From Gemmatimonadota bacterium (GTDB taxonomy: Bacteria; Gemmatimonadota; Gemmatimonadetes; Gemmatimonadales; GWC2-71-9): 64,000 nt of DNA. The notes under the pieces are model-generated. The model ran no database searches. It was given only the letters and a program-made list of their open reading frames with translations, and was not told the origin of the DNA. Below, piece by piece: positions 1 to 5,769 of the stretch. A program made the translations under genes and the position numbers. Location: positions 64,001 to 128,000 of the forward strand of contig JBDHKN010000005.1 of assembly GCA_039586365.1 (NCBI GenBank). Direction: 5' to 3'. The stretch's first letter is position 1. Each line of letters begins with the position of its first letter.

Positions 1-598
1 AATAGCTGAAGAACGGCTGCCCCGCCGTCTGCAGCAGATTGCGGCCAACTAGTTCCGGACTGTCCTGGTTCACTTGCTTGAACAGCGCGAAATCATCGGT
101 CCTGGCAGTAGACGAATCCCGGTCAAAGAAGAACACGATCGTCTCGGCCGGGGAGTTACCGACTCCACCGATCGCCTGATAGGACGCAGCTGGATAGACA
201 TTGGCGCTGTGCGGTATGGTGATTGGCGTGGCTGTCGTCAGCGCAGCCACCGAGCCGGTAGGGGCGTCGGGATCGTAGTAGACCGCCCAAACGTCATTCG
301 CCACGTTGGTCGCGTAGTCAGCATTGAAGGCGACCACGTCTTCATCGATGTAGATGAGGAACGGCTGGTTGCCCGGCACGTTCGATCCTGCGGTGCGGAG
401 GTCGAGTTCCAACACGTTGGTCGTGAACCGCAGATTCTGTAGCGCGTCCATTTGCTCCGAGCCCAGGCGGAATCCGCGACTCTGCGAAAGCATCGCTGAC
501 AACGCAGTAGCCACGATCAGACCGAACACTATCAGTGCGATCATCAGCTCCGGCAGTGTCATTCCCTGCTCGCTTGGCCTCAACGTAGAGCATCTCAT
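1..598 (-). CDS. Type IV minor pilin, PilW-like (runs off the window's left edge)
   Basis: Not in the ORF track; translated by hand: MRCSTLRPSEQG|MTLPELMIALIVFGLIVATAL...QNLRFTTNVLELDLRTAG. Class III signal peptide with E5. The ATG overlaps the stop of the upstream pilV (ATGA). Open to position 1. Confidence 0.85.
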   Translation of the reverse strand, partial: MRCSTLRPSEQGMTLPELMIALIVFGLIVATALSAMLSQSRGFRLGSEQMDALQNLRFTTNVLELDLRTAGSNVPGNQPFLIYIDEDVVAFNADYATNVANDVWAVYYDPDAPTGSVAALTTATPITIPHSANVYPAASYQAIGGVGNSPAETIVFFFDRDSSTARTDDFALFKQVNQDSPELVGRNLLQTAGQPFFSY

Positions 599-975
599 GG
601 TGCAGCCACGGTGACTGATCGGGACACCGGCTGAGCCAACCCGGGACCTTGGACCGATACTGTGATCTTCTTGTGATCGGTCGTCTGACCGAGACCTCCC
701 ACGCGGACTATGGTGGTCGTCCGCGTGAATCCAGGGAGAGAGGCGAAGCCGCTCTCGGTCCCGCTGTAGGTAGTGTCCAACCCCCCGTAGTTCGGATCCA
801 TCTGAATCTGATCGATCCGACTATCGACAAGCTGTAATGCAGAGGCTTTGCGATCGCCTACTGTGACGATGTGCAGAAACGAGCCTGTCGTGCTCCCCAG
901 AGCCAAGATCACGGTGCTGATGACAATCAGGGCCATGAGCACCTCAACCAGGGTGAATCCGCGTTCCGTCTTCAT
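595..975 (-). CDS. Type IV minor pilin, PilV-like
   Basis: MKTERG|FTLVEVLMALIVI prepilin motif. Start placed at ATG 975, giving a TGATG overlap with the upstream gene. Confidence 0.85.
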   Translation of the reverse strand: MKTERGFTLVEVLMALIVISTVILALGSTTGSFLHIVTVGDRKASALQLVDSRIDQIQMDPNYGGLDTTYSGTESGFASLPGFTRTTTIVRVGGLGQTTDHKKITVSVQGPGLAQPVSRSVTVAAP

Positions 976-1559
976 CAGAAGCCTCGTTGCCACACGCCGC
1001 TGTAACGGTGCCATGAGACGCGTCCGGTGGACCGCTCGACCTCGAGCAACCGCGTGTCGGTCGCGTGAGCACCACTGAGGGTCGCTCGACGCGAGGTTAA
1101 ATACACACCACCACGCTCACTTGCGCTCCCGTTGCGATGGTAGGTGAGCGCCGGTAATCCAGTGAACTTCTTCTTGAAGGTGACCGGCCCCGGGCCCACG
1201 GGATGGGCTGGCGCTCCCCCGGCAGACAGAACCACCTGTTCTCCCAGAGCTACTCCGCGGGTTCGTTCACCGGCATCGAGCAGCCCATTGTTATTGGCAT
1301 CCTCGATCACGCGAATCGCGTTGGTTCCCGCATCGAATGTGATGACCACGTCGTGTTGCGCAGTCACTGCACGACGCTGTGCAGACAGCAGAGTGGTGCC
1401 TACACCTCGCATTGAGCTTTCAATCCGGTACTTCGTGTAATCGAATCGGGGCAGTGCGAAGGCGGCCACTAAACCGATGATTACCACCACGATGAGGAGT
1501 TCGATCAGCGTTACGCCAGCCCGATTGGGTGGTCTCAAATGCAGTACTACAAACGCCAT
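975..1559 (-). CDS. Type IV minor pilin, FimT/GspH-like
   Basis: NRAG|VTLIELLIVVVIIGLVAAFALP prepilin motif and C-terminal TGRV. ATG 1559 is preceded by an AGGAG RBS. Confidence 0.85.
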   Translation of the reverse strand: MAFVVLHLRPPNRAGVTLIELLIVVVIIGLVAAFALPRFDYTKYRIESSMRGVGTTLLSAQRRAVTAQHDVVITFDAGTNAIRVIEDANNNGLLDAGERTRGVALGEQVVLSAGGAPAHPVGPGPVTFKKKFTGLPALTYHRNGSASERGGVYLTSRRATLSGAHATDTRLLEVERSTGRVSWHRYSGVWQRGF

Positions 1560-1562
1560 AGT

Positions 1563-1665
1563 TGCTCCTGGTAGCTCGGCTGCCGTTTCCAAGACCTGCC
1601 GTCTGGCTAACGACCCGTGGCTTTGCGTCCCACGGTTACCCGTGGTTTGCCCTTTTCAGCAAGCA
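1563..1665 (-). ncRNA. c-di-GMP-I (GEMM-I) riboswitch
   Basis: Minus strand reads GAAAAGGGCAAACCACGG-GTAA-CCGTGGGACGCAAAGCCACGGGTCGTT...AACGGCAGCCGAGCTACC. This has the hallmark GGCAAACC / GNRA loop / GGACGCAAAGC / TACC elements. P1 (UGCUUGCUG / CAGGAGCA) can form. Confidence 0.92.
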
Positions 1666-1951
1666 GCATAGCCGGTGGTGTGCAACCTTGCGGAAGCTGC
1701 GCCTCATTGTCCGGAGGCTACGACAGCCGCGAAGACCTACTGCGCCACTTTCAACATGGTCGTTTCGCCCCTGCAATCACCGTGTGCCACGTCACAGTCC
1801 ACGTACACCTAATATCCTCGTCAGTCACGCGTTTGGCGAGAGTTGGTGGAGTCCGCAACCGACAACGCGATTGCAGGACAAGCACCAGATTCCAGACATT
1901 TGGACCCGCAACATGGACGAACGGCCCGGCGGCACTTAGCTTATCGCAACG

Positions 1952-2815
1952 ATGGCGGACTACGGACTCGTTATTTCGGACCCACCACAGGGTGACGTTG
2001 ACTTTCGCCAAGCGGCTCCCTGTTTCGGCCTGACCCCCGCCGAAGTACGGATGAAGGCCAACTATCAGGTCCCCGAGATCTGGATCGCCGACGTGGACGA
2101 GCAGAAGGTAGAGGCGACCGTCGGACTCCTGCGAAAGGCGGGACTCAGAGTCGCGCACCGCTCGGGAAAGGATCTTCAGAGCATACCGGCCCCCCAAATG
2201 GTGCGATCGTTCCAGTTTGCGGCGAACGGACTCCGAATCAGTCTGGATGGCGGGGAGGCCGAGATCAGCTACGATGCCCCCATGGTCGGGATCTTCTGCC
2301 AACCGCTTCGCAGCGGCTTCGACAGCCGACCAGCGGGACATGACTCCCTCAAGGACCGCATGGCTCACGGCGGTATCGCGCTGGGAGATTCCAAGCGTGG
2401 ATCCAGCTTGGAAGGCATGCTAGCAGCCAAACGACCGCACCTCGAGGAAGCCCCGTTCTTCGATATCTACGAGCTGAAGGATGGCGGAATGATGCGACTG
2501 TCAGTGATCCAGGATGTCGTTGACTTCTCTGGGTTGCCGACGACGCACCGGCGGGCCGCGGACAACATGGCGCTGTTCGTCGCCGAGTGCGCCGATCGGT
2601 TAGTTGAGGCCCGAATCGACCGGCGTCTCGTGGGAATGCGCTGGCGCAGACGGCCGCCGGTGAGCGCCCCACTTCGTGAAGACAGTCGCCGCAAGGGCTT
2701 CTCCTTTGCCACCGCAAAACTGTCACAGCTCCTGGAGTCGATCTCACCTGAGTTGCGGGACGTGAGCGACCCGGACCTCTCATCCAGGCTGGCATATCTC
2801 ACGAGCCGCTCGTAG
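1952..2815 (+). CDS. Hypothetical protein (287 aa) between the two pilin cassettes
   Basis: Long ORF with protein-like composition that fills the gap between the cassettes. No recognised motif. Confidence 0.7.
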   Translation: MADYGLVISDPPQGDVDFRQAAPCFGLTPAEVRMKANYQVPEIWIADVDEQKVEATVGLLRKAGLRVAHRSGKDLQSIPAPQMVRSFQFAANGLRISLDGGEAEISYDAPMVGIFCQPLRSGFDSRPAGHDSLKDRMAHGGIALGDSKRGSSLEGMLAAKRPHLEEAPFFDIYELKDGGMMRLSVIQDVVDFSGLPTTHRRAADNMALFVAECADRLVEARIDRRLVGMRWRRRPPVSAPLREDSRRKGFSFATAKLSQLLESISPELRDVSDPDLSSRLAYLTSRS

Positions 2816-2912: not shown

Positions 2913-4037
2913 TCAATAGGAGTACAACCAGCCCCTCGAACGCAGCATTGCGCCCGGGGCCGCATTGGTCAAGACCCGTGCCACCGCACAACTCGAGTAC
3001 TGGACCAGAGCGTCACCCAGGATTGAGTTGTCATCCAGGTCGACATTGGCGGCCATCACTGCACCGTTGAAGTGTCCGCCGGTACCCGTCGTCTTGAGCA
3101 CCCCTCTTGTGACTACGATGCCAAAGAACTCAAAACCACCTTGGACCGATAGGTTACCGTCCACCAGCAGAATGCCTTGTCCGTAGCCACCGCTGATACT
3201 CAGGTTCCCCTCCACGTACATGATGGGGAAATAGCCACCGCACGCTGACGCCGGCGCGAGAGGATCGCCCCAGTTGTCCTCGGTGGCAAGAATACACGCT
3301 CCTCCCTGGATGTCCGGCCCGATGCCCGTATGGGTGCCGGGTGTCACCAGCTTGTTCCTCATCAAGACGAGAGCGTCCCAGTCCATGTCGCCATATTGGA
3401 AGAAAGTCGTGCTGTCGATCGTGGCGTCTTCGCTGACCGGCGGCGACCCTGCGATACACGAGTAACTCGGCCCTGCGCAACTTCCTTGGCCATGGAGCTC
3501 ACCCGGAGGCAGCCGTATCCCCGACATGTTCGTGTCCGGATGGCAGTTCATCCATGCGGTCGGATCAGTGTTGGTCCCGTCCACTTTCGCATTGCCACCG
3601 ATCTTGGTTGTTCCTTGGGTCGTGAGCGCGGCCTGCACGTCCATGTCGATCGTGCGCAACCTGACCAAGGCTCCTATGCTCTGCTGTGTTCTGCTGCCCG
3701 CGTCCTGGCCGGTGATATCCACCACAAACAACTCGTTGTTGAGCCTGGTAACCGTGCCGGCATAGCTACCCGATCCACCAGCAGGAGAGCCGTTCACAGC
3801 CACCGAAGAGTCCACGGCGAGCATATTGTAGATGCCAGGTTCCCAGTTCCCAACGGTTTCGCTCAGCCCGTGTTCTGCCACGGCAAACGCCTGTGCCGAC
3901 CGTCGTGTTGAGTTGGCATCCCGCCGCTCCATGACGCCCGACACGACGAACCCGGTGATGACGGTACCGGTCACCACCAAACCTATGATAGCGACCAAAA
4001 GCACCATGCCTCTTTCATTCTTAAAGTACTTCGTCAT
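2913..4037 (-). CDS. PilX/GspK-like large minor pilin with C-terminal beta-repeat domain
   Basis: NERG|MVLLVAIIGLVV prepilin lacking E5 (typical of PilX), AFAVAEHG motif, Gly-rich VxGNL repeats. AGGA upstream. Confidence 0.85.
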   Translation of the reverse strand: MTKYFKNERGMVLLVAIIGLVVTGTVITGFVVSGVMERRDANSTRRSAQAFAVAEHGLSETVGNWEPGIYNMLAVDSSVAVNGSPAGGSGSYAGTVTRLNNELFVVDITGQDAGSRTQQSIGALVRLRTIDMDVQAALTTQGTTKIGGNAKVDGTNTDPTAWMNCHPDTNMSGIRLPPGELHGQGSCAGPSYSCIAGSPPVSEDATIDSTTFFQYGDMDWDALVLMRNKLVTPGTHTGIGPDIQGGACILATEDNWGDPLAPASACGGYFPIMYVEGNLSISGGYGQGILLVDGNLSVQGGFEFFGIVVTRGVLKTTGTGGHFNGAVMAANVDLDDNSILGDALVQYSSCAVARVLTNAAPGAMLRSRGWLYSY

Positions 4038-4052
4038 AGTCTCTCGATCCTG

Positions 4053-4922
4053 CTAGAATCTCGGATTGTTACGCAGCGCCACCCGTGAAATCAGCGAGTC
4101 GCGCGCGAAGTCGGTCGTGGCCACACTCTGTCGTACCCGATTGCGGGATTCGCCCCGCAACAGCACCGCGATACTTGCGATGTCGGTGATTGTTCCCGCG
4201 GCGGCGCCGGTACTGTCGAAATAGGCCAGCGTCATCCCGCCGGCGGCGAGCGGCCCTACGAGGGGAAGCGGTGTGGTCCAGGCGCCCGCACGACTGGCGG
4301 TGCGCTGGGCCAGCCACCAACGTCCGCCGGTTGAAAGAAGCGTGAGCTCCTCCAGTTGAAACCCCCGAAGCGGGCTTCCCAAGGTCACCCCGGCCACCAC
4401 CGCGGCTGAGCCTCCGGCAAGTAGCGGAATCTCCACCGACAGATCGGCTGAGGGAGAACCGTCCGCGCAGTTACCGGCAGCCACCGCGGTCACACCCCCT
4501 GCCAGCCAGGCATCGTCGGCTCTGGTGGTCGGATCGCCGTCAACGAAGACGAACACCGAGTCCAGGGCCGCGCTTGGGCCACGGACTCCATAGATGAGGT
4601 CCCGTCTGACAGGCATTGTGACAACCGTCATTGATGCTGCCACGGGCGCGGTGCAGAGAATCCCCGTCCAGCGCATGCTGCGGAACTGCAGCTGTGTCCC
4701 GGTTGCCACGACGATGTCATTCTCGGCTGCGTTCAGCTCCCGTATCACACTGGCTAAGTAGCCAACGCCTGCGCGGAGGTTCTGTCGCACGTCAACCTGC
4801 TGAGTACCGGCCTGGGTAGCCCTTTGGGTATTCACAATTGCTTGAAAGACCACGGTGGCCACTGCCGCGCCCAACCCTAAGGCCATTATCAACTCGATCA
4901 GCGAGAAACCGTTCCGATTCAT
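4053..4922 (-). CDS. Type IV minor pilin, PilW-like
   Basis: MNRNG|FSLIELIMAL...QNLRAG and C-terminal VALRN. ATG 4922 overlaps the upstream stop (ATGA). Confidence 0.85.
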   Translation of the reverse strand: MNRNGFSLIELIMALGLGAAVATVVFQAIVNTQRATQAGTQQVDVRQNLRAGVGYLASVIRELNAAENDIVVATGTQLQFRSMRWTGILCTAPVAASMTVVTMPVRRDLIYGVRGPSAALDSVFVFVDGDPTTRADDAWLAGGVTAVAAGNCADGSPSADLSVEIPLLAGGSAAVVAGVTLGSPLRGFQLEELTLLSTGGRWWLAQRTASRAGAWTTPLPLVGPLAAGGMTLAYFDSTGAAAGTITDIASIAVLLRGESRNRVRQSVATTDFARDSLISRVALRNNPRF

Positions 4923-5296
4923 CGTAGGCATGTCAGTGCCTTCTCCAATGTGTCCGTACGAGATCGTCCCACAGCAAGTGGATACGTGGAAGTCAGAGTG
5001 ATGTGCCGGACCGGTGTCGTGACAGTGCCGTCGACCGTCCACGCGAGGTTGTACAATCCCTCCTGTACCTCACTGCCGTTGCCTATCCCGTCGCAGCCCA
5101 GGGCCTCGAGCTGCTCGAGACGCTGGTGGGCATAGTACGCAGCCGCTATCTCGCGATCTGATTCTCCCAGTGTCCGGATCACGGAGGCTGTCGCCCCTAG
5201 CATTCCGAGTAAGCCAATCGCGAGCACAACGATCGCGATTAGGACTTCCACCAAAGTGAACCCCGCCTGGCGTTCCGGTTTCTCGATCCGGGTCAC
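4919..5296 (-). CDS. Type IV minor pilin, PilV-like
   Basis: RQAG|FTLVEVLIAIVVLAIGLLG. GTG start in a GTGA overlap. Confidence 0.85.
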   Translation of the reverse strand: MTRIEKPERQAGFTLVEVLIAIVVLAIGLLGMLGATASVIRTLGESDREIAAAYYAHQRLEQLEALGCDGIGNGSEVQEGLYNLAWTVDGTVTTPVRHITLTSTYPLAVGRSRTDTLEKALTCLR

Positions 5297-5769
5297 CACG
5301 TGGCCCATCCTATTGGAGAGATTGCCAGCGTATCGGAATGGCCGCCCTTGCCAAACTTCATTACGATCCAACCCGGGGAGGACCCCAAGCCATTGGGATT
5401 GAAGATCACAGAGTCACCGCTAGTAGACACGGTCACGCCAAACCGGTTCCCCAGGTCTTGCACGCCACCAATCGTGTCCACCCCAACTCCCCCTACAGTG
5501 CAACTGGTGACCCATATCTGCGCATTGGCGCCGCTCGTCATGTGCAGTGCACTTCTGCAACCTCGATTGGCTGCGGTACCGCGAGCCCGCGCCAGTTGAG
5601 TCGTGACGGAACGCCTGGCTCCACGAACCGCTTCGCTCGCCATGCCCTTTTTCGCCGTTGGAATGGCCACCGCCGACACTATACCGACGATTGCTAGCGA
5701 TACCATCAGCTCAGTGAGCGTCAATCCCGCGCGACTGCGAACAGCTGAGCGACCTCGCATTTGCTCCAT
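5293..5769 (-). CDS. Type IV minor pilin, FimT/GspH-like
   Basis: RAG|LTLTELMVSLAIVGIVSAVAIP, LARAR..A and FNPNG. GGAGG RBS before ATG 5769. Confidence 0.85.
   Translation of the reverse strand: MEQMRGRSAVRSRAGLTLTELMVSLAIVGIVSAVAIPTAKKGMASEAVRGARRSVTTQLARARGTAANRGCRSALHMTSGANAQIWVTSCTVGGVGVDTIGGVQDLGNRFGVTVSTSGDSVIFNPNGLGSSPGWIVMKFGKGGHSDTLAISPIGWATW

Follow-up and report, generated by a model that had tools for sequence, protein, structure and literature searches.

A predicted translational c-di-GMP switch with the ribosome-binding site of a minor-pilin operon in its closing stem, from a Gemmatimonadota genome

What signal, acting in which direction, does the leader of a small minor-pilin operon convey to the ribosomes of a Gemmatimonadota bacterium? 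The question arises on the minus strand of the window, i.e., the whole 64,000-nucleotide stretch of DNA analysed here (source genome G000), where an aptamer lies 5' of a fimT-like gene, in the same sense, in a genome with GGDEF enzymes. The answer argued for below is that c-di-GMP binding likely turns off the translation of a four-gene minor-pilin operon, because the closing stem of the aptamer, P1, contains the Shine-Dalgarno sequence of the fimT-like gene. This reading draws on the sequence and on folding models.

The aptamer and its probable ligand

The Rfam model RF01051 (c-di-GMP-I / GEMM-I) matches positions 1567-1661 of the minus strand over its full length (model positions 1-87), with 64.7 bits against a gathering cut-off of 35 bits and a genome-wide E-value of 4.6e-12. 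It is the sole RF01051 match in the source genome, and none was found in 14 control genomes. The overlapping RF03167 model (c-di-GMP-I-GGC) matches 1566-1660 with 63.7 bits, which passes its gathering cut-off of 59, as several orthologues also do. In an Rfam scan of the whole 64-kb window, RF03167 is the only match listed, as the best label, with one overlapping clan match suppressed; looser settings give two matches in the window. The first-pass annotation had described a complete minus-strand GEMM-I aptamer and had suggested a covariance-model search with both Rfam families as a check. Both models score above their cut-offs, and each of the elements that it named is found in place:

1567-1661, minus strand: c-di-GMP-I (GEMM-I) aptamer, matched by RF01051, with RF03167 overlapping
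1625-1650, minus strand: stem P2, read from the sequence, with G1650-C1625, C1649-G1626 and a six-pair stem (1645-1640 with 1635-1630) closed by a GUAA (GNRA) loop
1645-1640, 1639-1636 and 1635-1630, minus strand: the letters of P2, CCACGG, GUAA and CCGUGG
1629-1622, minus strand: the junction, GACGCAAA
1573-1622, minus strand: P3 with an AG bulge (1581-1580) and a long distal hairpin, from the Rfam alignment
1614-1609 and 1587-1582, minus strand: the P3 strands GUCGUU and AACGGC
1573-1570, minus strand: the aptamer end, UACC
1651, minus strand: G, equivalent of position 20, by base indexing
1624, minus strand: A, equivalent of position 47, from the Rfam alignment; the RF03167 consensus has G there
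1571, minus strand: C, equivalent of position 92, by base indexing

One correction concerns the junction, which is present as listed, the earlier GGACGCAAA having counted the last G of P2 twice. The family label c-di-GMP-I-GGC was considered and dropped. We take this name to stand for G20/G47/C92, with the G at position 47 defining the variant, and the label was not adopted because the window RNA has A1624 at this position; RF01051 also scores more bits. The pocket bases G20, A47 and C92 are present as G1651, A1624 and C1571, with A1624 presumably playing the pocket role of A47. The bases for a P2-P3 contact are present as well (GUAA loop 1639-1636, C1627 and bulged G1580), C1627 and G1580 being of the C44/G83 type in the numbering that we assume. 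The window RNA is confirmed, at the level of sequence, as a genuine canonical c-di-GMP-I riboswitch aptamer and not a chance match.

In the Vc2 aptamer, G20 and C92 each read one of the two ligand guanines, and Vc2 with G20 has picomolar affinity for c-di-GMP but binds cGAMP at 10 uM, A20 being the mark of the cGAMP sensors known as GEMM-Ib (PMC6140456). The window has G1651, not the A20 of GEMM-Ib, and the earlier proposal that G at the equivalent of Vc2 position 20 favours c-di-GMP over 3'3'-cGAMP holds as far as the bases can tell. Hypr GGDEF enzymes, on which the criterion for a cGAMP synthase is based, carry a serine at the base-reading position (PMC6456294). This serine occurs in none of the 10 GGDEF profile matches of the source genome (86% complete), five of which combine the aspartate with an intact GG(D/E)EF motif. 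The same genome, at that completeness, has six HD_5 matches and no match to the EAL domain. Taken from these sequences, c-di-GMP is very probably the ligand.

The operon and its ribosome-binding site

The genes behind the aptamer, and the stem that joins it to them, are arranged as follows:

1657-1665, minus strand: core 5' strand of P1, UGCUU(G)CUG, the anti-Shine-Dalgarno strand, with 8 pairs to 1570-1563 and G1660 bulged
1563-1570, minus strand: 3' strand of P1, CAGGAGCA, containing the Shine-Dalgarno AGGAG (1569-1565)
1667-1672, minus strand: 5' strand of a predicted P1 extension, pairing with 1560-1555 across the AUG (constrained duplex and binding-competent fold)
975-1559, minus strand: fimT/fimU-like minor pilin of 194 aa, the directly controlled gene; N-methylation model above and GspH below cut-off
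595-975, minus strand: pilV-like minor pilin of 126 aa; N-methylation model above, GspI and PilV models below cut-off
1-598, minus strand, running off the window to G000:C92:63420: pilW-like minor pilin of 392 aa in total; N-methylation model passed
G000:C92:61660-63423, outside the left edge of the window and overlapping the pilW stop: pilX-like frame of 587 aa with a prepilin-like start and no NCBIfam match

P1 is built from G1657-C1570, U1658-A1569 and C1659-G1568, the bulged G1660, and five further pairs between 1661-1665 and 1567-1563. All five bases of AGGAG are paired in it. The pairing of AGGAG with the anti-Shine-Dalgarno sequence is worth -6.6 kcal/mol, at a spacing of five bases to the AUG; the standard 16S 3' end is present in four relatives and was not found in the source genome. 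The AUG (1559-1557) follows three bases after the end of the P1 3' strand and 11 bases after C93. Both what had been said of AGGAG and the AUG three nucleotides on, and the pairing of the 3' strand with the upstream UGCUU(G)CUG, are thereby borne out. Six more pairs (1672-1667 with 1555-1560) can lengthen P1 to 14 and cover the AUG, an extension that is not significant for the window alone, where 8.5% of 200 shuffles equal it. It lies beyond the coordinates of the first-pass annotation and was absent from it. No intrinsic terminator-like site was found in 1400-2100. In the modelled bound fold, the Shine-Dalgarno sequence is paired, the start lies at ribosome-site spacing and a terminator-like site is absent, as would be expected of a translational OFF switch.

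The names fimT, pilV, pilW and pilX are based on motif, gene order and size, because the family-specific models, which would tell pilus-tip proteins from type II secretion pseudopilins, stay below cut-off or find no match. The fimT-, pilV- and pilW-like frames pass generic prepilin N-methylation models, and the prepilin genes stand in the order FimT/U-PilV-PilW-PilX in a genome with type IVa machinery, including a PilB-like ATPase with an MshEN domain, four PilT matches above cut-off and one PilY1 match. This PilY1 match is on contig C70, and no pilY1 adjoins the riboswitch operon. The pilX-like fourth gene had not been noticed earlier. It had been suggested that the gene overlaps would pass a translational block on to pilV and pilW. 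The overlaps exist, as TGATG (fimT stop 977-975, pilV start 975-973) and ATGA (pilV stop 597-595, pilW start 598-596), but coupling to pilV may be partial, because pilV has its own Shine-Dalgarno GAGG (985-982), six bases before its AUG. Four more pilin-like genes (2913-5769, minus strand) form a second set 1.3 kb upstream, which has no riboswitch. Between both sets, divergent from the riboswitch leader, a 287-aa frame (1952-2815, plus strand) has no Pfam or NCBIfam match. More pilin-like genes occur on contigs C70, C91 and C96.

With regard to transcription, no sigma-70 promoter was found in a scan of 1400-2100. For sigma-54, scored with what we take to be the -24/-12 consensus, the best candidates in the window (1704 and 1887, scores 17 and 18) are not above chance; 35% of shuffles reach 17, and therefore no promoter is claimed for the window leader. 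Such boxes scoring at least 20 do lie upstream of 27 of 70 fimT loci (L115-L184), compared with about 1.8 expected from shuffles. A sigma-54-like candidate scoring 19 belongs to the second pilin set, and the source genome has rpoN. The public sequencing runs gave contigs only. A contig of 133 bases, from a public RNA library and at depth 2, is identical to 1621-1753; it shows neither transcription nor a start. In a close strain (run X1), 38 differences are listed between positions 400 and 2400, with 1522-1769 free of them, a pattern too weak to count. The strain also lacks 30 bases at about 1870-1899, upstream of the leader.

Occurrence among Gemmatimonadota relatives

Among the matches listed, RF01051 occurs in 45 of 61 related genomes, at 100 places. 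A protein search for fimT found orthologues in 103 of the 250 genomes of the family (106 matches), of which the window, 69 loci scanned blind and four loci chosen through their aptamer were examined. The aptamer is present in 19 of the 69 blind-scanned loci; counting the four gives 23 of 73, which overstates the frequency because these entered on account of their aptamer. The other 50 blind loci have no Rfam match, and the riboswitch is therefore an optional layer. In 21 of the 23 aptamer-bearing orthologous loci, the fimT start lies 9-16 bases after C93, and in two it is about 50-75 bases away.

A curated set of 21 loci, the window included and one near-duplicate dropped, was used for structural comparison. 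It leaves out L170 (a near-copy of L169), L111 (the same sequence as L116 over the stretch shown), the two aptamer-bearing loci with more distant starts (L056 and L149, still among the 23), L069 and L071 (whose distant starts belong to other pilin genes), L052 (where the motif match is false), L145, L171 and L128 (whose partial aptamers gave no Rfam match), and L024, L009 and four upstream-frame or long-leader loci, which are not fimT orthologues. Throughout the set, a Shine-Dalgarno-like run begins 1-2 bases after C93 and has two or more bases in P1 pairs; G14-C93 is kept as well, G14 being chosen as the nearest G in an anchored count of P1. The MAFFT alignment shifts G14 in five rows and so undercounts P1. 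Pair 13-94 is kept in 18 of the 21 loci, with six pair types, and pair 12-95 in 18 as well; G20 is found in 20 loci, the exception (L081) having A20, and a GNRA loop caps P2 in 20. Over the whole structure in the MAFFT alignment, 92.7% of 398 cells are paired, against 22-46% in slid controls, and 9 of 19 pairs are changed on both sides. P2 is 99% paired, with 4 of its 6 stem pairs changed on both sides, and P3 is 93.5% paired.

The 5' and 3' flanks of each locus pair with one another at -19.0 kcal/mol, compared with -16.0 when swapped (permutation p 1e-4). For the outer P1 extension, beyond the inner five bases, the group p is 0.015, but this reflects a subgroup: five of the 21 loci beat 96.5% of shuffles, nine lie below the swapped mean, and the window stands at 0.085. 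Both p-values overstate the case, because the loci are kin and not independent. Among the aptamers of relatives at large, 97 of the 100 listed matches could be parsed and three could not; 47 of the 97 carry a Shine-Dalgarno-like run after C93, 22 with a long frame that starts at +8 to +17 and 25 without. The 3' end of the GEMM-I aptamer is, in these sequences, purine-rich regardless of the gene behind it. The compact platform with P1 placed on a predicted ribosome site is conserved across many Gemmatimonadota genera.

Several loci depart from this arrangement. L145, L171 and L128, with partial or decayed aptamers that have no Rfam match, keep the P1 3' end and the Shine-Dalgarno sequence, which suggests that the switch was lost around a retained ribosome site. 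In the genus of the window, L008, L020, L087 and L094 have the Shine-Dalgarno-in-P1 switch aimed at an upstream frame of 34 or 43 codons, or at a long in-frame leader; these precede a pilX-like gene, and the short frame of L008 ends in a TGATG overlap. In another family of the order (L004, L007, L014 and L047), P1 covers GAGG(AG) 13-15 bases before non-pilin genes, one of them for a response-regulator-like protein.

Aptamers of the A20 (cGAMP) type account for 51 of the 97 parsed (e.g., L012, L023, L026, L016, L022 and L052) and fall into two sequence groups. One precedes genes of about 100 aa that resemble anti-sigma antagonists, and the other precedes lipoprotein-like genes with terminator-like hairpins, both sets of genes being named by eye. 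At G045:C3:2423795-2425146 (L062, L204), an A20 aptamer lies upstream of a gene for a GGDEF domain with the canonical aspartate. The Hypr serine was found in none of the 19 GGDEF domains read, out of 20 retrieved, from four A20-bearing genomes, a part of the domains that they encode. A20 without Hypr would mean either another source of cGAMP or A20 aptamers that read c-di-GMP.

Mechanism, alternatives and significance

The direction of the switch was explored by folding, with the binding-competent fold defined by enforcing G14-C93, P2 and P3, and the ribosome site taken as 1569-1557. Whatever the boundaries (18 of 18 choices), this site is costlier to open in the binding-competent fold, at 9.5-14.1 kcal/mol, than in the free ensemble, at 3.8-6.3; three neighbouring starts cost 5.4-8.2 kcal/mol. 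Every one of the 18 settings for the window places the binding-competent fold above the ensemble, by 1.2-9.3 kcal/mol. Across the 21 loci, at two 5' boundaries, the site is costlier to open in this fold in 19 and 17 and less costly in 0 and 2; the effect is absent or reversed in L015 and L141, and upper P1 is weak in L015, L139 and L141. These models omit tertiary terms, and their outcome is partly built in, because the enforced G14-C93 nucleates P1. The modelled ligand-free site would be cheaper to open than the bound one, yet its accessibility varies strongly with the boundaries, and some free folds bury it in a local hairpin. Unconstrained folding was not used as evidence of direction, since the minimum-energy fold of the region is not the aptamer and its stability is not above that of shuffles (z -1.09). 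The OFF direction put forward in the first-pass annotation agrees with the start spacing in 21 of the 23 aptamer-bearing loci and with the models (18 of 18; 19 and 17 of 21), from which we infer it. The direction of a c-di-GMP riboswitch has to be tested in each context, as a review warns (PMC6366702), and in pilM, P1 forms only with ligand (PMC9262584).

At low c-di-GMP, the 5' strand of P1 would pair elsewhere (in the models with 1651-1647 and 1626-1619), the ribosome site would be about as open as neighbouring starts, and ribosomes would load at AGGAG-N5-AUG and continue through the gene overlaps. At high c-di-GMP, the ligand would dock at the three-way junction and P1 would close, with 8 pairs or up to 14 with the extension, over the Shine-Dalgarno sequence and possibly the AUG, so that the 30S subunit would be excluded and fimT translation would stop. 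We consider it quite probable, on the modelling, that ligand-dependent closure of P1 controls fimT translation in this manner. Loss of fimT translation would then lower pilV, pilW and pilX via translational coupling and Rho polarity, a more weakly inferred step whose chances we put at about even. The riboswitch-led tip set would thereby be removed at high c-di-GMP, leaving the second set, 1.3 kb upstream, untouched by the switch.

It is unlikely that the main output of the OFF switch is the level of mRNA, through Rho termination or decay of the untranslated fimT message or through a stable short RNA. Rho is encoded in the source genome (670 bits), and ligand binding by Vc2 stabilises upstream RNAs that end at P1 (bioRxiv 10.1101/617340), but such an output requires the same first step, there is no terminator-like site in 1400-2100, and the conserved distance to the start codon suggests that initiation is what the switch primarily acts on. 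A still less favoured possibility is that P1 is too stable, the aptamer folding ligand-free and the operon being constantly damped or kinetically set, with c-di-GMP adding little. P1 may reach 14 pairs, tertiary contacts (outside the models) favour the closed fold, and in 7 and 5 of the 21 loci no more than 1 kcal/mol separates the binding-competent fold from the ensemble; however, this fold stays at least 1.2 kcal/mol above the ensemble in every setting for the window, P1 is interrupted by a bulge, an internal loop and G-U pairs, and the pocket is conserved across the 21 loci.

An ON switch, in which a hairpin with the first codons sequesters the ribosome site of the free RNA and the ligand frees this site or selects another start, appears highly improbable. 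With a 5' boundary at 1730 or 1760 and the coding sequence included, most Shine-Dalgarno bases are indeed paired in the free fold, but the bound fold itself pairs them and makes opening costlier in all 18 settings, and in orthologues the start stays 9-16 bases after C93. The in-frame alternatives were rejected as fimT starts, TTG 1592 lying inside P3 and neither it nor TTG 1538 having a clear Shine-Dalgarno sequence. We give equally little credence to a ligand other than c-di-GMP, the RNA then sensing cGAMP or belonging to the c-di-GMP-I-GGC variant. Although RF03167 is the best match in Rfam and A20 is common among the aptamers of relatives (51 of 97) and occurs at one orthologous locus, L081, the pocket of the window is canonical, with A where the GGC consensus has G, RF01051 outscores RF03167, and the ten GGDEF matches (genome 86% complete) are free of the Hypr serine. 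The reading that we retain is a c-di-GMP-responsive block of fimT initiation.

Direct occlusion of a Shine-Dalgarno sequence by an aptamer is known in other riboswitch classes, e.g., preQ1. Vc2, from the Vibrio cholerae tfoY leader (RF01051), is close in its aptamer, being of the same class with the same G20/C92 pocket. Vc2 is a translational OFF switch with P1 formation as the key step (PMC9262584; 10.1101/617340). There, about 102-110 bases separate the P1 3' end from the start, and it is a distinct anti-RBS further downstream that masks the site (10.1101/617340), whereas in the window P1 itself holds the Shine-Dalgarno sequence and can cover the AUG. The Geobacter pilM riboswitch (GEMM-Ib) likewise places a GEMM-I fold before type IV pilus genes and forms P1 on ligand binding (PMC9262584), but it has A20, responds to cGAMP and is a transcriptional ON switch acting via a terminator on assembly genes (PMC9262584; PMC8835794); the window has G20, no terminator-like site, a predicted translational OFF output and minor pilins. 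In Clostridioides difficile, Cd1 (class I, flgB) and Cdi-2-4 (class II, pilA1) are c-di-GMP riboswitches on motility and pilus operons, both acting via terminators, the pilin one being class II and ON (PMC6366702); the window RNA is class I, and c-di-GMP is predicted to lower its pilin set. Unlike Vc2, pilM and Cd1, the window switch would work without an expression platform distinct from the aptamer.

Multiple minor-pilin sets per genome are also found in Myxococcus xanthus, with three clusters of minor pilins and PilY1 (several fimU-pilV-pilW-pilX sets) that are partly translationally coupled and differently expressed (PMC13190605). The available text on these clusters names the protein regulators HsfA, FruA and MrpC and no riboswitch (PMC13190605), and in the window, unlike in M. 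xanthus, pilY1 is not beside the riboswitch operon. A literature search over titles and the beginnings of abstracts found no published c-di-GMP riboswitch in Gemmatimonadota, and no report of a c-di-GMP-I switch with P1 as the ribosome site of a minor-pilin gene, although the founding papers may already predict such cases. The main text of PMC5473149, as available, does not mention Gemmatimonadetes, and its supplements on phylogenetic distributions may bear on the claim about the lineage. What is described here combines a known class of switch with a known type of gene, and is not a new riboswitch class, ligand or regulated process.

A wider picture can be offered tentatively, as one that we hold to be rather less than even in likelihood. 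The Gemmatimonadota would have a compact c-di-GMP-I form in which P1 doubles as the ribosome site, often with the start covered too, repeatedly gained, lost or moved before one of several minor-pilin sets, so that c-di-GMP would select the tip complex that primes the pilus; at least one A20 orthologue would sit on the same platform, with no Hypr serine in 29 GGDEF domains. If the OFF switch itself holds, the locus would offer a translational c-di-GMP switch that is small and self-contained, and its twenty or so natural variants would allow P1 strength to be tested against response. Its sense would be opposite to that of C. difficile pilA1, where c-di-GMP turns pilin genes on, and it would be a first concrete link between c-di-GMP and the choice of pilus tip in a widespread, little-studied phylum.
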